Shown here: piece by piece, positions 1 through 5,020 of the stretch
Position numbering within the stretch: the stretch's first letter is position 1
Layout of the letters: the number at the start of each line of letters is the position of its first letter
Source of the DNA: a virus
Taxonomy: Duplodnaviria > Heunggongvirae > Uroviricota > Caudoviricetes
Virus record (IMG/VR): IMGVR_UViG_2778261504_000009
Span: 1-6,021 of that record
Strand: one strand, 5' to 3'
DNA: 6,021 nucleotides
The notes under the pieces: model-generated
Told to the model about the DNA's origin: nothing
The model's database searches: none
Seen by the model: only the letters and a program-made list of their open reading frames with translations
Made by a program: the position numbers and the translations under genes

Positions 1-926
1 TCGCAGTACTGGCCGATGACATACAGCGCCCATTTGTCCACATCCGCCGCACCAAGACGTTTCCCCATGCCGTAGCGTGGATGGGTCAGCATATCCCACA
101 GACACCAGGCCATGTTATTGCTGTATGCTGGCTTAAACGTTCCGTCCCAGATACCGCTGTATTGCCGAGTCTGCGGGTTATAGTTCGACGGCACCTGCAG
201 AATACGCCCGCGCAGATGATAATTACGGCTCACCTGCTGGCTGCCGAACTGCTCCGAATCCACCTGTACGCCGACCAGTGCCGTGTTCGGGTAGCACTGT
301 TTCACATCGATGATTTCGGTGTATGACGACCAGAGCGTTTTGTTCTGCAGCTGGTCTGTGGTGCTGTCCGGCGTCATCCTGCGCATCCGGATATTGAACG
401 GGCGCGGCGGCAGGTCACCCACCACCACCGAGGCCAGATACTGCGACGTGGTTTTGCCCTTAATGGTGATGTCTTTTTCCGTCACCCAGCCACCGTTACG
501 CTGTATCTGAACCAGCAGGCGGACTTCCGATGGATTCCTGTCCCCCTTTGAAGTGGTTTCCACCAGTGCCTGCACACCGAAGGTAAAGCGCAGACGGTCG
601 ATGTTTGCCGACGTAATGGTCCGGGTAATCGGCGTGTCGTACTTCACCTCCGTACCCAGCACCGTCTCGGAGTCGGAGGATTCAAATCCCTCCGGCGGTG
701 TCTGCTCCTGCTCACCAGCCCGGAACACCACCGTGACACCGGAGATATTGGTATTCCCCTCACTGTCCAGCACTGGCGTACTGTTCAGCAGCACACTTTT
801 TAATCCCTCCACCGGACCTTCAATCGGCCCTTCACTGATGGCGTCTATCACGCTCAGCAGCGGGGATGATTTCAGGTTGTCCTTCGCTTCGCGCGGGGTA
901 TGCCCCTTACTGCTGCCTTTACCCAT
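1..926 (-). CDS. J: Tail tip / host-specificity protein J, N-terminal ~308 codons; gene runs off the window at position 1
   Basis: Not in the ORF track because no stop lies in the window. Reverse complement from ATG (complement of 924..926) reads MGKGSSKGHTPREAKDNLKSSPLLSVIDAISEGPIEGPVEGLKSVLLNST..., and near the window edge ...RQYSGIWDGTFKPAYSNNMAWCLWDMLTHPRYGMGKRLGAADVDKWALYVIGQYC, which matches lambda gpJ as I remember it. Sits 60 nt downstream of the I stop, as in lambda. Confidence 0.9.
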   Translation of the reverse strand, partial: MGKGSSKGHTPREAKDNLKSSPLLSVIDAISEGPIEGPVEGLKSVLLNSTPVLDSEGNTNISGVTVVFRAGEQEQTPPEGFESSDSETVLGTEVKYDTPITRTITSANIDRLRFTFGVQALVETTSKGDRNPSEVRLLVQIQRNGGWVTEKDITIKGKTTSQYLASVVVGDLPPRPFNIRMRRMTPDSTTDQLQNKTLWSSYTEIIDVKQCYPNTALVGVQVDSEQFGSQQVSRNYHLRGRILQVPSNYNPQTRQYSGIWDGTFKPAYSNNMAWCLWDMLTHPRYGMGKRLGAADVDKWALYVIGQYC

Positions 927-1628: not shown

Positions 1629-2263
1629 TTGTCGGTATACCTCTCTCGTTTGCTCAGTTGTTCAGGAATATGGTGCAGCAGCTCGCCGTCGCCGCAGTAA
1701 ATAGCGGCATGATTCGGCACCGATGAACCAAAACAGCACAGCAGCACATCGCCCGGCTGCGCCGCTGACAACGGCACCTGATACAGCCCCGTTGCCTCCA
1801 GATTATCCAGATAGAGATTCTGACCGTGACGCCACCAGTCATCCCCGCGATGAAAATCCGGCATCTCAATCCCCGCCAGATGGTAAGCATCCCGGAACAG
1901 TGTGTAACAGTCCGTCACCCCGTGCTCAAAGCGCCGCCCGGTGAGATGCGGCACACAGCGGAATTTATGAATCTCACCCCGGCAGACCAGCCACCACGGC
2001 AAATCACTCTGCACCTGCAGCCGCCGGTCAGCCTCACTCAGCCAGGGCAGGCCACCGGGGTGGCTGTGGACCAGCGCCACAATCTCACCCTGCATTTTGG
2101 CCTGCAGCCAGTCCTCCGGAGCCATCCGGAAATAATCCTCCGGCTCACCGGAGATATTCACGCAGGGAAAATATCTTTCCCCCTCCGGCGTTCTCACCAC
2201 GAAGCCGCACGACTCCGCTGGCGCACATCGCCGGGCGTGCGCCAATATATTGCTATAGAGCAT
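1526..2263 (-). CDS. K: Tail assembly protein K (lambda gpK-like) with MPN/JAMM and NlpC/P60 peptidase motifs; start placed at the ATG with a strong SD (245 aa)
   Basis: Translation carries a JAMM-type motif HSHPGGLPWLSEAD (HxHx7Sx2D) and NlpC/P60-like Cys/His contexts (GVTDCYTLF, SVPNHAAIY). The ORF-track start at 2302 is rejected because codons 2-13 lie inside a hairpin/U-tract (2276..2299). The ATG at 2261..2263 is preceded by AGGAG (complement of 2269..2273) with a 5-nt spacer. An internal ATG at 2123..2125 would give the 199-aa length I recall for the classical lambda K annotation, so the start is uncertain. Confidence 0.85.
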   Translation of the reverse strand: MLYSNILAHARRCAPAESCGFVVRTPEGERYFPCVNISGEPEDYFRMAPEDWLQAKMQGEIVALVHSHPGGLPWLSEADRRLQVQSDLPWWLVCRGEIHKFRCVPHLTGRRFEHGVTDCYTLFRDAYHLAGIEMPDFHRGDDWWRHGQNLYLDNLEATGLYQVPLSAAQPGDVLLCCFGSSVPNHAAIYCGDGELLHHIPEQLSKRERYTDKWQRRTHSLWRHRAWHASAFTGIYNDLAAASTFV

Positions 2264-2275
2264 GAGAACTCCTGA

Positions 2276-2299
2276 TAAAAAACCCAGCCGAAGCTGGGT
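2276..2299 (-). terminator. Putative intrinsic terminator after ant: 6-7 bp GC-rich stem, UUCG loop, U6 tract, directly 5' of the K ribosome-binding site
   Basis: Minus-strand RNA reads CCCAGC-UUCG-GCUGGG-UUUUUU-AUC-AGGAG-UUCUC-AUG. Plus strand shows cccagc (2283..2288), loop cgaa, gctggg (2293..2298), with an A6 run at 2277..2282. Confidence 0.5.
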
Positions 2300-2317
2300 C
2301 ATTTCGTTGGCAATCTG

Positions 2318-3238
2318 TTAGTAGTGATGCAGTGAAGGAGGTAATTCTTTGTTCTTAAGTCTTAGCCATGCAGAAAGATTCGTTGGTCCGTCTGGCTCAT
2401 TAATATCAATATCTCGCGTGTGATTGATTAAAACGTCTCTCGCCATTCCAATAACATACGAGAACTCATGACCGTAGTCGTAGCATCTGCAGGAATAGTT
2501 CGATTGAATTTGCTTTAGCGCCGGATACAGTTCGCGGAATAATGCCTGTGAGCGGTTAGCATAATCCCATAACCATACAAGGCTGTTTGCTTCTTTTGCA
2601 GAAAGCTCGTTGGTTTTCTTCTCTTGTTTGCCAATGAACTCACCTTCAAGCGGAACGCGAGCAGCAAGTGACAGTGCTTCGGTAAACTGCTCCTCACTAA
2701 TTTCTTTGTACGAACATCCAAAATGGGATTTCAGTGACGACCACATGGTGATCATCGCCTTCGCCTGTTTTTCTTTTGGCAGAGACTGACCGCGACTCAT
2801 GACAAGTTGTTTAATGGCTTCCTGCTGTTCAGTGGTGATTTTCCCCAGCAATGCCTTTTTAGCTTTGCGCGGGTTAATCACATGGCCTTTAGTCCAGTAC
2901 TCGTAGAGCACATCGTCACACTCTTCCTGATACTGGATTACCTTCTCGCGGATTTCAGGGCGGACTTTGTTAGGACTGATGGTTTGGAGCCAACCATTCA
3001 GTTTACGCAAAGCAAGGCAAATCATGGTCTGCATACCGCCAACTGAAGGTATTGCGATTTCCACAATACCTTTAGCAAATCTTTGTTTTAACTTTGTAAA
3101 CTGTGAAGCCCAATCCATACCCATTCCCTCAACGATAGGTTTCATTGGGGTGTACGGTTCGCCGTTGTGATTGACGACATAAAGCTCTGCGCCGTGGAAT
3201 GGCACGTTGATAGTAGATACCGCTGTTGCTATACTCAT
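2318..3238 (-). CDS. ant: Ant-like phage antirepressor (P22 immI Ant family), 306 aa from the ATG start
   Basis: Translation MSIATAVSTINVPFHGAELYVVNHNGEPYTPMKPIVEGMGMDWASQFTKLKQ... has the look of phage antirepressor proteins and sits immediately downstream of an Arc-like gene, the P22 arc-ant order. The ORF-track start at 3292 is a GTG inside a hairpin; ATG at 3236..3238 is preceded by AGGAA (complement of 3247..3251). Family assignment is from memory and context, not from a search. Confidence 0.75.
   Translation of the reverse strand: MSIATAVSTINVPFHGAELYVVNHNGEPYTPMKPIVEGMGMDWASQFTKLKQRFAKGIVEIAIPSVGGMQTMICLALRKLNGWLQTISPNKVRPEIREKVIQYQEECDDVLYEYWTKGHVINPRKAKKALLGKITTEQQEAIKQLVMSRGQSLPKEKQAKAMITMWSSLKSHFGCSYKEISEEQFTEALSLAARVPLEGEFIGKQEKKTNELSAKEANSLVWLWDYANRSQALFRELYPALKQIQSNYSCRCYDYGHEFSYVIGMARDVLINHTRDIDINEPDGPTNLSAWLRLKNKELPPSLHHY
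3207..3235 (+). promoter_or_regulatory. Near-consensus sigma70-type promoter firing antisense across the ant start (Psar-like)
   Basis: TTGATA (3207..3212), 17-bp spacer, TATACT (3230..3235), with TG at 3227..3228 giving an extended -10 (TGcTATACT). Predicted start near 3242. Confidence 0.4.
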
Positions 3239-3241
3239 TTC

Positions 3242-3312
3242 GTTAGTTCCTTGGAAGTTACTGACATAGAAGCCCGATTTGTGTTCGCGCACTGTCGGGC
3301 TTCGCTATTTTT
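3242..3312 (+). ncRNA. Candidate sar-like small antisense RNA (~70 nt) complementary to the ant SD and the arc-ant intercistronic region
   Basis: Bounded by the promoter at 3207..3235 and a hairpin with 9-bp stem gaagcccga (3269..3277) / tcgggcttc (3295..3303) followed by gcUAUUUUUAU (3304..3314). Coordinates are approximate. Size and position mirror the P22 sar RNA as I recall it. Confidence 0.35.
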
Positions 3313-3314
3313 AT
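3269..3314 (+). terminator. Hairpin plus U-rich tract in the arc-ant intercistronic region; candidate terminator for the antisense RNA
   Basis: Perfect 9-bp inverted repeat 3269..3277 / 3295..3303 with a 17-nt loop that can form an inner GUG/CAC stem, followed after 2 nt by tattttta. The U tract is not directly adjacent to the stem, hence modest confidence. Confidence 0.35.
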
Positions 3315-3478
3315 GTCCTAGCATTCTTCTCTCCAATCAGTCCGTACACTTTTCTCAATTGATAAATAAGTTCCGTGTTGAACTGTCGACACTCTTTTTC
3401 TCCATTTCTTTCAATCGCCTTCCTTACATCCTCTGGGAAACGAACCTTGCGTTGATACATGTCTTTTGCTTTTTCCAT
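3311..3478 (-). CDS. arc: Arc-like ribbon-helix-helix repressor, 55 aa (not in the ORF track)
   Basis: Hand translation of the reverse complement gives MEKAKDMYQRKVRFPEDVRKAIERNGEKECRQFNTELIYQLRKVYGLIGEKNART, stop TAA at complement of 3311..3313. Resembles P22 Arc (...FNLRWPREVLDLVRKVAEENGRSVNSEIYQRVMESF...) in the R-x-P-x-E-V strand and N-x-E-I/L-Y-Q helix. Preceded by AAGGAG (complement of 3484..3489) 5 nt before the ATG. Confidence 0.75.
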   Translation of the reverse strand: MEKAKDMYQRKVRFPEDVRKAIERNGEKECRQFNTELIYQLRKVYGLIGEKNART

Positions 3479-3495
3479 CTCCACTCCTTAAATAG

Positions 3496-3558
3496 CCTCA
3501 CTGTGGGGCAATCAAAATTGTCACACCGTGCGTCATTGAAGTCAACCCCACCGTGGGG
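3496..3558. promoter_or_regulatory. Operator-like sites: three CACYGTG cores at 25-bp phasing, two embedded in 13-bp palindromes
   Basis: Perfect palindrome ccccac-c-gtgggg (3546..3558) and near-palindrome cctcac-t-gtgggg (3496..3508) share the core CCNCACYGTGGGGCA. A third caccgtg lies at 3524..3530. The cores start at 3499, 3524 and 3549. Confidence 0.45.
3517..3545 (-). promoter_or_regulatory. Candidate Pant-like promoter for arc-ant
   Basis: On the minus strand: TTGACT (complement of 3540..3545), 17-bp spacer, GACAAT (complement of 3517..3522) preceded by TGT (extended -10 form). Predicted start near 3510, about 30 nt upstream of the arc ATG. Confidence 0.4.
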
Positions 3559-3564
3559 CATAAT
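3536..3564 (+). promoter_or_regulatory. Candidate Pmnt-like promoter for the Mnt-like gene, back-to-back with the arc-ant promoter
   Basis: TTGAAG (3536..3541), 17-bp spacer, CATAAT (3559..3564). Its -35 overlaps the -35 of the divergent minus-strand promoter by 2 bp. Confidence 0.4.
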
Positions 3565-3601
3565 TTACTTATTGTGAATTTTTCCTGTTTGGACTAATGG
3601 T

Positions 3602-3976
3602 ATGAGTAGAGAAGACCCTCAACTTCGGATTAGGCTTCCTGTTGAATTAAAAAAAATAATTGAAGCGTCATCAAAACAAAATAATCGTTCTATGAATGCT
3701 GAGATTGTCACTCTGCTTGAGTTGGCGATTCGTGTTTGTCGTGATTTTGGGCCGGAGGATGGTCCTATCGTTCAGCAGTTTAAAGAACAACTAGATGCGA
3801 TAAACAGAAAATATGATAAAAGCGAGCATGAAAAACTTATACCTCAACTTTTAGAAATCATAGAAAAACAGAAAAAACAAGTAGATAAACTTATTAGCAT
3901 GGTTGAAAGATCAATTCCTCTTTCAGAGGAATATAAGCAGAAATATCTTGGTGATGACAACAAAAAACCCACCTGA
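3602..3976 (+). CDS. mnt: Mnt-like ribbon-helix-helix repressor with an extended charged C-terminal region, 124 aa
   Basis: N-terminus MSREDPQLRIRLPVELKKIIEASSKQNNRSMNAEIVTLLELAI resembles P22 Mnt (ARDDPHFNFRMPMEVREKL...NGRSMNSELLQIVQDAL) as recalled. The C-terminal ~80 residues are K/E/Q-rich and probably helical. Divergent from arc-ant as in P22 immI. The SD is weak. Confidence 0.75.
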   Translation: MSREDPQLRIRLPVELKKIIEASSKQNNRSMNAEIVTLLELAIRVCRDFGPEDGPIVQQFKEQLDAINRKYDKSEHEKLIPQLLEIIEKQKKQVDKLISMVERSIPLSEEYKQKYLGDDNKKPT

Positions 3977-3983
3977 TGGTGGG
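3962..3983 (-). terminator. Putative intrinsic terminator 3' of L, overlapping the stop codon of the convergent Mnt-like gene
   Basis: Minus-strand RNA reads CCCACC-AUCA-GGUGGG-UUUUUUGUUGU. Plus strand shows cccacc (3968..3973), loop tgat, ggtggg (3978..3983), preceded by an A6 run (3962..3967). The mnt TGA stop (3974..3976) lies in the loop. Confidence 0.45.
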
Positions 3984-3992
3984 CATAATCCA

Positions 3993-4691
3993 TTACTGCG
4001 AAAGTTTGTTAATGGAAAGGAAGCCGCCAAAGTTGCCGACGTTATTGCGAAACTTACAGCCACTCAGGCATTTGCTGCATTTATCCTTCGTGATATCGGA
4101 CGTCGGCTGGTCATATTCATCCGCGACAGCCGGACCGTTATAACCGCACTCATCACCGCGATAGGTCCAGGTGCAGGTGTTGGCCAGCATGATACGCCCC
4201 GGAAAAACAGCGCCATCCGTTTCCGTCGGCGTGGCCAGTACAAAGGAGGCACTCACCGCGCTCAGTTCACTGCACTGCTCGATGCGCCAGCGGCTGATCA
4301 CCTCCTGCTCCGGATCGGCGTCACTGTTTCCGTTGACGAAGTTCACCGCATCCAGAAAACGGGCGTAAACCTTACGCCTGACCACCGTTCCGCCGACCAG
4401 ACTCTGCATATCTTCCACCATACCGGTGACCATGCCGTACAGGTTAGAGACTGCCAGCGTGGGCCGCGTACTGGTGCCTTTGCCATTCAGTTCAAAACCG
4501 CTCCCCTGAATGGGATACGCCTGATACTGCCTCCCCTGCCAGGTGATCGGCTCACCTTTTTCGTTCTGCTCATTACAGAAAAAATAACGTTCTCCACCGA
4601 CCTCTGTCAGGTCGATTTCCCAGAGCACCACGCTGGCCGACTGCTCCGCACGGGTGCATTCATTCAGTGTTTCCTGCCGGATATCCTGCAT
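3993..4691 (-). CDS. L: Tail tip protein L (lambda gpL-like), 232 aa
   Basis: Translation MQDIRQETLNECTRAEQSASVVLWEIDLTEVGGERYFFCNEQNEKGEP...CSKCLSGCKFRNNVGNFGGFLSINKLSQ matches lambda gpL from memory. Start overlaps the M stop by 1 nt (TGATG). Confidence 0.9.
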   Translation of the reverse strand: MQDIRQETLNECTRAEQSASVVLWEIDLTEVGGERYFFCNEQNEKGEPITWQGRQYQAYPIQGSGFELNGKGTSTRPTLAVSNLYGMVTGMVEDMQSLVGGTVVRRKVYARFLDAVNFVNGNSDADPEQEVISRWRIEQCSELSAVSASFVLATPTETDGAVFPGRIMLANTCTWTYRGDECGYNGPAVADEYDQPTSDITKDKCSKCLSGCKFRNNVGNFGGFLSINKLSQ

Positions 4692-5020
4692 CAGTTCACC
4701 ACCTGTTCAAACTCTGCGCTGAACTCAACACGCAGCATACTGACCCGCGACGACCATTTTGCGCAGGTCACCTTTATCTGCCGCCACTCATAAGGCGGCG
4801 TCCACAGAAAGGCTTTCCAGCCCCCGTGCTCTTCCAGAAACGACTCCAGTACCGTGGCCTCCTCACGGGGGACAGAAAGCGTCACGCTGTACGTTTTCAG
4901 GTTGGCATTCAGCCCGGCAGGCGCTCGCTGGGAATAGCCATCACCAAAGCGCACCTTTCTTACAGAAGGGGCCGAAGCCACATCCATACCGGGTTTCACT
5001 TTCCAGCGGAAGGTTTTCAT
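4691..5020 (-). CDS. M: Tail tip protein M (lambda gpM-like), 109 aa
   Basis: Translation MKTFRWKVKPGMDVASAPSVRKVRFGDGYSQRAPAGLNANLKTYSVTLSVPREEATVLESFLEEHGGWKAFLWTPPYEWRQIKVTCAKWSSRVSMLRVEFSAEFEQVVN matches lambda gpM from memory. ATGA overlap with the H stop. Confidence 0.9.
   Translation of the reverse strand: MKTFRWKVKPGMDVASAPSVRKVRFGDGYSQRAPAGLNANLKTYSVTLSVPREEATVLESFLEEHGGWKAFLWTPPYEWRQIKVTCAKWSSRVSMLRVEFSAEFEQVVN

Follow-up and report, generated by a model that had tools for sequence, protein, structure and literature searches.

A probable sar-type antisense RNA gene opposite the ant ribosome-binding site in a lambda-like E. coli prophage

Does a lambda-like prophage of E. coli encode, opposite the start of its antirepressor gene, an antisense RNA of the kind that limits Ant synthesis in phage P22? 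The question was raised by an original prediction, which placed a strong antisense promoter in the first codons of ant and a hairpin with a U-rich tract a short distance downstream of it. The window analyzed here, the whole stretch of 6,021 nucleotides, covers part of the tail operon of the prophage, which lies on the minus strand. The operon genes in the window are the tape-measure gene (5017 onwards), an M-like gene (4691–5020), L (3993–4691; Pfam Phage_tail_L, E = 1e-100), a K-like gene for a C40 peptidase (1526–2263), I (987–1628) and J (up to 933). Between L and K, the tail operon is split by an insert of three genes, namely an mnt-like gene, an arc-like gene and ant. At 99.9% identity, the window matches the chromosome of E. 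coli Res13-Lact-PEA14-20, where RefSeq gives the same genes only and an RNA annotation is absent from the locus; with strain CFSAN018748 included, identity at this locus is 99.9–100%.

The mnt-like gene (3602–3976, plus strand) encodes a ribbon-helix-helix repressor of 124 aa with a Pfam Arc domain (E = 3e-7), and its N-terminal ribbon-helix-helix part is 33% identical to the N-terminus of P22 Mnt. The arc-like gene (3311–3478, minus strand; 55 aa) is the upstream cistron of an arc-ant operon. Its product matched Pfam Arc weakly and under the cut-off (19.1 bits, E = 0.0012), and displayed 33% identity to P22 Arc over 40 aa and 80% identity to the protein annotated as an Arc-like repressor in phage TL-2011b. 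The second cistron, ant (2318–3238, minus strand), encodes an antirepressor of 306 aa with both Pfam P22_AR_N (E = 9e-45) and P22_AR_C (E = 4e-29) domains and 56% identity to P22 Ant, and is the gene that the candidate RNA is predicted to control. Its ATG is located at 3238–3236, and the start of the RefSeq antirepressor corresponds to window position 3238. Judged from its sequence, the mnt/arc/ant module is complete. The insert is bracketed by minus-strand intrinsic terminators, one after L (3984–3967) and one after ant (2300–2281), as is usual for late-operon inserts under their own regulation, and arc and ant have the same orientation as the tail genes. A promoter scan placed two divergent promoters of 9/12 each at 3517–3564, which by analogy we assigned as a predicted Pant (3545 to 3517, minus strand) and a predicted Pmnt (3536 to 3564, plus strand). 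Their core is conserved in TL-2011b, and they are flanked by the operator-like repeats CACTGTGGGGCA (3499–3510) and CACCGTGGGGCA (3549–3560).

The candidate sar promoter (Psar) lies within ant codons 2–11 on the plus strand and is directed antisense to ant. The promoter scan identified a −35 hexamer TTGATA at 3207–3212, within Ile-Asn codons of ant, and, after a spacer of 17 bp, an extended −10 TGcTATACT at 3227–3235 (TG at 3227–3228, TATACT at 3230–3235), which is the reverse complement of ant codons 2–4, AGT ATA GCA (Ser-Ile-Ala). The strong promoter claimed by the original prediction is thus present, with a near-consensus sequence, and it is also better than those of the protein genes, as had been stated: with 10/12 plus the TG extension, Psar was the top promoter-like site between 2200 and 4100, compared with 9/12 for both Pant and Pmnt. 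Transcription from Psar is predicted to start at G3242, 7 nt after the −10. This position was taken from the layout in P22, and position 1 of the Rfam sar model aligns to the same nucleotide.

A promoter-like and a terminator-like sequence might stand side by side by chance, and sites that reach 9/12 in the promoter scan are as frequent here as in shuffled sequences (4 found, 3.6 expected). At the level of Psar the picture is different. Promoters of at least 10/12 with a TG extension numbered one in the whole window on either strand, compared with 0.038 per dinucleotide shuffle, and such a promoter together with a 9-bp hairpin and a T run was found in 0 of 1000 shuffles. Moreover, the homology to P22 sar and the conservation over about 80 loci, both presented below, are comparative data that effectively refute a coincidence, which we regard as extremely improbable.

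The RNA that would arise from Psar is 67–71 nt long (3242 to 3308–3312, plus strand) and consists of two hairpins and a U-tract end. The minimum free energy fold of the 71-nt form (3242–3312) had an energy of −28.3 kcal/mol, with z = −5.06. In stem-loop I (3242–3265), GUUAGU (3242–3247) pairs with ACUGAC (3260–3265) and encloses a 12-nt loop, UCCUUGGAAGUU, which holds the anti-Shine-Dalgarno sequence UCCUU at 3248–3252. This 5′ hairpin was absent from the original prediction. The predicted target of its loop is the ant Shine-Dalgarno sequence AAGGA (3248–3252, minus strand), located 9 nt upstream of the ant AUG. Stem-loop II (3269–3303), the terminator hairpin, has a lower stem GAAGCCCGAU/GUCGGGCUUC of nine Watson-Crick pairs and one G-U pair and an upper stem GUGU/GCAC. 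The perfect 9-bp stem that had been described about 30 nt beyond the start, followed by a U-rich tract, was recovered as GAAGCCCGA (3269–3277) paired with TCGGGCTTC (3295–3303); it begins 27 nt after the predicted start and is followed by the terminator tail GCUAUUUUU (3304–3312), within which the 3′ end is predicted at 3308–3312. This end overlaps the arc stop codon (3311–3313, minus strand), and complementarity between the predicted RNA and the arc-ant intercistronic leader is perfect. It had also been proposed that the RNA covers both the Shine-Dalgarno sequence and the start codon of ant. The predicted RNA does cover the Shine-Dalgarno sequence, whereas the start codon would be left uncovered because the predicted 5′ end stops 4 nt from the AUG (1 nt in P22).

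The terminator hairpin was not listed by a simple terminator scan, because its loop exceeds the length limit of that scan. In addition, the U tract is set 4 nt (GCUA) off the stem, and the efficiency of termination is therefore uncertain. A coding reading of the segment was rejected, as 3242–3312 contains no ATG or ORF, and two overlapping reading frames, an ORF of 136 aa on the plus strand (3167–3577) and one of 33 aa on the minus strand (3235–3336), were without support. A possible third operator in the 3′ arm of the terminator was also considered. This arm, CACTGTCGGGC, resembles the operator-like repeats CAC(T/C)GTGGGGCA, and the same coincidence is found in TL-2011b. The idea was dropped after four loci with similar terminators and unrelated operators (L170, L130, L091 and L096) displayed no such resemblance.

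The annotated P22 record provides the reference for this layout. In P22, sar occupies 15021–15090 (minus strand) and Psar 15097–15125, arc ends at 15022 and ant starts at 15091, and the 5′ end of sar, 15090, is a G located 7 nt after TATACT. According to published work, the sar transcript of P22 is about 69 nt long and prevents Ant from being made by base pairing, in the arc-ant intergenic region, with the ribosome-binding site of ant, and it works in trans (PMC3134472, PMC7968456, PMC10732415); RNA-seq of infected cells has also detected it (PMC13397905). On the sar strand, the P22 sequence reads ...AAAATTGCTATACTATTCATGTTGG... and that of the window ...GCTGTTGCTATACTCATTTCGTTAG.... The extended −10 block TTGCTATACT is identical and falls on the same Ser-Ile-Ala codons of ant, a gap of 6 nt separates the −10 from the G start in both phages, and both elements are antisense to the arc-ant intercistronic region, with a 3′ end that overlaps the arc stop. 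Both correspond to a two-hairpin RNA of about 70 nt (annotated as 70 nt in P22, predicted in the window), and the fold of P22 sar (−29.5 kcal/mol, z = −5.26) has the same architecture as that of the window. The 6-bp stem I is the same, GUUGGU...ACUGAC in P22 and GUUAGU...ACUGAC in the window, with a G-U pair replaced by an A-U pair; the loop of hairpin I carries an anti-Shine-Dalgarno sequence in both, and the terminator base GAAGCCC/GGGCTTC is common to them. In both phages the module is situated inside a late operon, in the same orientation.

There are also clear differences, as about half of the RNA sequence is not shared. The loop of stem I comprises 12 nt in the window and 16 nt in P22, and the upper part of stem II is, in the window, an internal loop followed by the GUGU/GCAC helix instead. 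The tail is GCUAUUUUU in the window and AACUUU in P22; the latter is even poorer, and the U tract of the window is longer but lies 4 nt from the stem. In comparison to the near-consensus −35 TTGATA of the window, P22 has a weak GTGTTA. The host context differs as well: the window belongs to an E. coli prophage that is lambda-like and long-tailed and carries the module between L and K, whereas P22 is a short-tailed phage with the module between gene 16/sieA and the tailspike gene.

We then compared the window with the sar family by means of covariance models. The Rfam sar model (RF00262) has a gathering cut-off of 43 bits and gave 97.8 bits for the positive control P22. In a narrow scan of 106 nt, the candidate was aligned end to end (3242–3306) with a score below this cut-off, 15.6 bits (E = 0.59), and a whole-window scan with an E limit of 10 returned noise only and no sar match. 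The low score is attributed to the narrow seed of the Rfam model, which at its own cut-off recognized only 5 of 19 representative sources (18 loci and the window) and so catches a minority of sar variants; the window thus belongs to the majority of sar sequences that Rfam misses. For a broader model, one set of 80 loci was picked solely by similarity to the Ant protein of the window and another of 120 loci by a loose DNA pattern, and together these gave 79 unique sar-like sequences. A covariance model (R1) of 41 sar variants, from which the window's own sequence was excluded, matched 3239–3311 on the plus strand with 39.9 bits (E = 1.9e-8). This was the sole significant match in the 6 kb, the runner-up being the reverse strand of the same hairpin (E = 0.37). 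Taken together, the module context, the shared −10 block and its spacing to the start, the two-hairpin fold and the R1 match bear out the sar-like reading of the original prediction, and identify 3207–3312 (plus strand) as homologous to P22 sar in position, sequence and structure.

The variant sets were chosen in part by patterns that include the −10 and the base of the stem, and hence the unbiased evidence on conservation is confined to stem I, to upper stem II and to the 80 loci selected by protein. In all 80 of the latter, which comprise five N-terminal haplotypes of Ant, the codons AGT-NTA-GCA were kept, with ATA as the middle codon in 58 loci, TTA in 14 and GTA in 8. This pattern preserves the TG, the TA at positions 1–2 and the ACT at positions 4–6 of the −10, whether the residue is Ile, Leu or Val. 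The −35 was TTGATA in 49 of these loci, TTGATT in 22 and of the weak P22 type (GTGTTC/GTGCTC) in 9, and the hairpin was kept in 79 of the 80.

Folding of the 79 unique variants gave two hairpins in every case, starting at nucleotide 0 or 1 of the predicted transcript. Stem I had been conditioned on in no selection step, and it was assessed by alignment-free folding and shuffles in place of alignments. By this approach, 19 helix haplotypes were found, all of them paired, with examples such as GUUAGU/ACUGAC, GUCAAUA/UGUUGAU, GUCGU/ACGAU, AUCAGUU/AACUGGU and GCCGG/CUGGC, although, owing to shared ancestry among related sequences, there were fewer independent events than such counts suggest. A 5′-terminal hairpin was formed by 17 of 17 haplotype representatives, compared with 8% of shuffles. 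Stem-loop I was not recovered when 20 representative variants were analyzed by MAFFT combined with RNAalifold, since its variable loop misaligns the 3′ arm, and the value of 53% paired for helix I in an alignment fitted to the covariance model (A2) is uninformative, the helix being misaligned there. For helix II, 97% pairing was obtained in the model-based family alignment; both partners had changed in 7 of its pairs, and its covariation score was reached by 0 of 500 shuffles. The A-U pair 3277–3295 of the window, for example, is G-C in its closest relatives.

These data also bear on whether an antisense RNA is involved at all. Each sar hairpin is mirrored in the ant mRNA, and the hairpins might act on the sense strand only, in the processing, stability or translational coupling of the arc-ant leader, with no antisense RNA; the promoter-like sequence would then be a by-product of conserved N-terminal codons of Ant, as its −10 and −35 do lie in coding sequence with conserved Ser-Ile-Ala and Ile-Asn. 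However, codon usage in the 80 loci is fixed beyond what the amino acids need, since AGT, NTA and GCA are found in every one of them, and the −10 is preserved even where the residue changes. The T run is present solely on the plus side, which indicates that the hairpin terminates transcription in the antisense direction and not that of arc-ant. Moreover, P22 sar has the same layout and is an experimentally detected RNA (PMC13397905). We therefore consider action on the sense strand alone very improbable.

On this evidence, 3207–3312 (plus strand) is very probably a functional homolog of the P22 sar gene, and by homology the element is most likely transcribed with the ends given above and most likely represses Ant. 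In the mechanism that we propose, a sigma-70 extended −10 promoter in the first codons of ant would fire at about G3242, opposite to ant, and transcription would end at the hairpin and U tract (3269–3312) to give an untranslated RNA of about 67–71 nt. The UCCUU in the loop of hairpin I would contact the ant Shine-Dalgarno sequence on the arc-ant mRNA, which may originate from Pant or from read-through of the tail operon. The resulting sar:arc-ant duplex would occlude the ribosome-binding site and limit antirepressor synthesis, with sar serving as a back-up to transcriptional control by the Arc-like and Mnt-like repressors. Late read-through is a possible additional source of ant message because the module is oriented as the tail genes are, and the P22 ant moron likewise sits in a late operon (PMC2629481). 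A post-transcriptional brake on ant makes sense in such a setting.

The same arrangement allows for another role of the promoter. Psar and the predicted Pant face each other, with starts at about 3242 and about 3510. An active Psar might act mainly by convergent transcription and not through a small RNA: polymerases could read through into arc and, by collision or occlusion, interfere with Pant (about 270 bp away) or with polymerases of the tail operon, lowering transcription of arc-ant and of the downstream tail genes K, I and J. The U tract at 4 nt from the stem may leak, and the module is oriented like the tail genes of the late operon that contains it, both in line with such interference. 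Liao et al. and Wu et al. (1987) are said to have described Psar and Pant as convergent promoters that influence each other. Against convergent transcription as the main mode of action, the terminator hairpin and stem-loop I are kept with compensatory changes, and promoter interference alone needs neither; P22, furthermore, produces a discrete trans-acting RNA with a length of about 69 nt (PMC3134472, PMC10732415). Convergent transcription and small-RNA action are not mutually exclusive, but we consider it improbable that the former predominates, and prefer the small antisense RNA as the main product of Psar.

Related elements are found in several phage groups. Sar-like elements are present in L-K modules of E. 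coli O157:H7 (strain F7386, 80 bits; TW08637, 61 bits) and in the Salmonella siphovirus vB_SosS_Oslo (50 bits), and because of these occurrences the sar circuit appears to be common in lambda-like long-tailed phages. Our literature searches found no description of sar in ant modules of lambda-like tail operons. Among P22-like phages, sar-bearing "ant morons" have been described in epsilon34, CUS-3, TL-2011b and others (PMC2629481). These resemble the module of the window as mosaic ant modules with sar, and TL-2011b shares 81% DNA identity with positions 2638–3708 of the window. They differ in that their stem-loop I and upper stem II are of other haplotypes and that their slot adjoins the tailspike gene and is not between L and K; TL-2011b is also narrowly above the Rfam cut-off (44.8 bits), whereas the window is below. 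The terminator hairpin is also present upstream of Icd-like genes in P4-like satellites; these sites were considered as further sar elements and rejected, as they scored only 15–25 bits with R1, a score due solely to the hairpin.

The element is real but ordinary, and is best described as a diverged, unannotated copy of sar in a lambda-like E. coli prophage. It extends the P22 sar circuit, at the level of sequence, to lambda-like long-tailed E. coli prophages with ant modules between L and K. The locus is of value for annotation and as an illustration of how broad and modular the sar family is. It extends a known mechanism and exposes an annotation gap, and brings neither a new mechanism nor a new question. 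Antirepressors decide on prophage induction or loss of immunity, Shiga-toxin phages included, and their controls therefore merit correct annotation. A wider reading is that sar-type RNAs form a much larger, modular family than RF00262, in which the diversity of stem-loop I, together with the ant leader, sets immunity specificities at the RNA level and GAAGCCC/GGGCTTC is a recombination joint. The basis for this reading is the finding of at least 17 stem-loop I haplotypes that recombine freely with terminator and arc-side modules; as a whole we regard it as speculative and rather unlikely. If it were true, the trans-acting sar of a resident prophage would shut off Ant only in those incoming or co-resident phages that are of its own type, a specificity that would matter in E. 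coli genomes with up to 7 ant modules, and the conserved GAAGCCC/GGGCTTC hairpin base would be the joint for swapping specificities.

Finally, we compared the element with other phage antisense RNAs. The C4 or CI-type RNAs of P1, P7, N15 and P4 (RF01695) also control antirepressor operons, and are likewise small phage RNAs that limit antirepressor expression by pairing near a ribosome-binding site (PMC10732415 for the CA RNA of N15). In contrast to the candidate, they are processed from the target's own transcript and act on downstream sites, and are not cis-antisense RNAs from a convergent promoter. The C4 model gave no match in the window even with E values of up to 10 allowed, and the candidate is on the strand opposite to ant; a C4/CI-type identity was thus rejected. 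The OOP RNA of lambda, which is antisense to cII, is likewise a short cis-antisense RNA with its own promoter and intrinsic terminator that modulates a regulator of the lysis-lysogeny decision. OOP overlaps its target at the 3′ end and works via RNase III-dependent decay, not by occlusion of a ribosome-binding site. It also has no sequence relation to the element of the window. OOP and sar are both listed in PMC3134472. As a side observation, C4 and isrK are both present elsewhere in TL-2011b.

The sar gene, which is predicted to encode an antisense RNA (window 3242-3312, plus strand) homologous to P22 sar, is itself a mosaic joint: variants of stem-loop I, variants of the terminator and the downstream (arc-side) sequence recombine freely there. 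At the terminator hairpin of the window (stem II, 3269-3303) and among loci L005-L204, four-gamete quartets numbered 63 for stem-loop I against the downstream sequence, and only 2-3 across either the stem I/stem II or the stem II/downstream junction. Locus L172 carries a P22-type terminator joined to the stem-loop I of the window, and in L130, L091 and L096 this combination is reversed. The conserved terminator base, GAAGCCC/GGGCTTC, may serve as a boundary for recombination. A "boundary sequence" is annotated at the corresponding sar site in the CUS-3 record.

In the ant-homolog locus L074 (about 1390-1500), the sar promoter Psar and stem-loop I were retained and the 3' arm of the terminator was lost to rearrangement; this is a natural deletion of the sar terminator. 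The viral contig L117 gave two separate significant matches to the sar model, at 450-517 (plus strand, 44.4 bits) and 2213-2287 (minus strand, 55.1 bits); this points to duplication of sar or to the presence of two ant-type modules.

A hairpin resembling the sar terminator was also present in three E. coli P4-like satellites (L208 1483-1545, L209 1471-1545 and L210 1474-1545). Its sequence, GAAGCCCGGTTAGTGTTCGCGCACTGCCGGG(C/T/G)TTC followed by a T run, is nearly identical to the sar terminator of the window, and it lies antisense to, and about 30 nt upstream of, the Icd-like genes of these primase/integrase satellites, which is how sar is placed relative to ant. These hairpins scored only 15-25 bits with the sar model, and they could be either sar-like antisense RNAs against icd or simply a terminator shared with sar.

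Strong intrinsic terminators were located on the minus strand directly 3' of tail gene L (window 3967-3984) and directly 3' of ant (2281-2300), so that the ant module is insulated at either end. Expression of the downstream tail genes K, I and J must then rely on late transcription that is antiterminated (Q-modified) and reads through both terminators and the convergent Psar.

Operator-like repeats, CACTGTGGGGCA (window 3499-3510) and CACCGTGGGGCA (3549-3560), flank the conserved core of the predicted promoters Pant and Pmnt and resemble the P22 Mnt operator core, CCACCGTGG. At 3290-3300, the sar terminator is similar to these repeats as well, through its 3' arm (CACTGTCGGGC), and the same holds in phage TL-2011b; this likeness is probably coincidental, because it is absent from other phages with similar terminators. 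The Mnt-like protein (window 3602-3976) has 124 residues, compared with 83 in P22 Mnt; only its N-terminal 43 residues (ribbon-helix-helix) are alignable, and its C-terminal 80 residues are rich in lysine and glutamate.

The TL-2011b locus also contains isrK (76.7 bits) and C4 antisense RNA (77.7 bits) matches (L001 62-247), which adjoin a Bro-N gene and lie at a distance of about 2 kb from the sar/ant module, so that two different RNA-controlled antirepressor-type systems lie side by side. Of 5426 complete E. coli genomes, 1183 contained DNA related to the ant module (window 2250-4000), at up to 7 places per genome. Only about 12 records had a sar of exactly the window type, defined by at least 95% identity over 141 nt.
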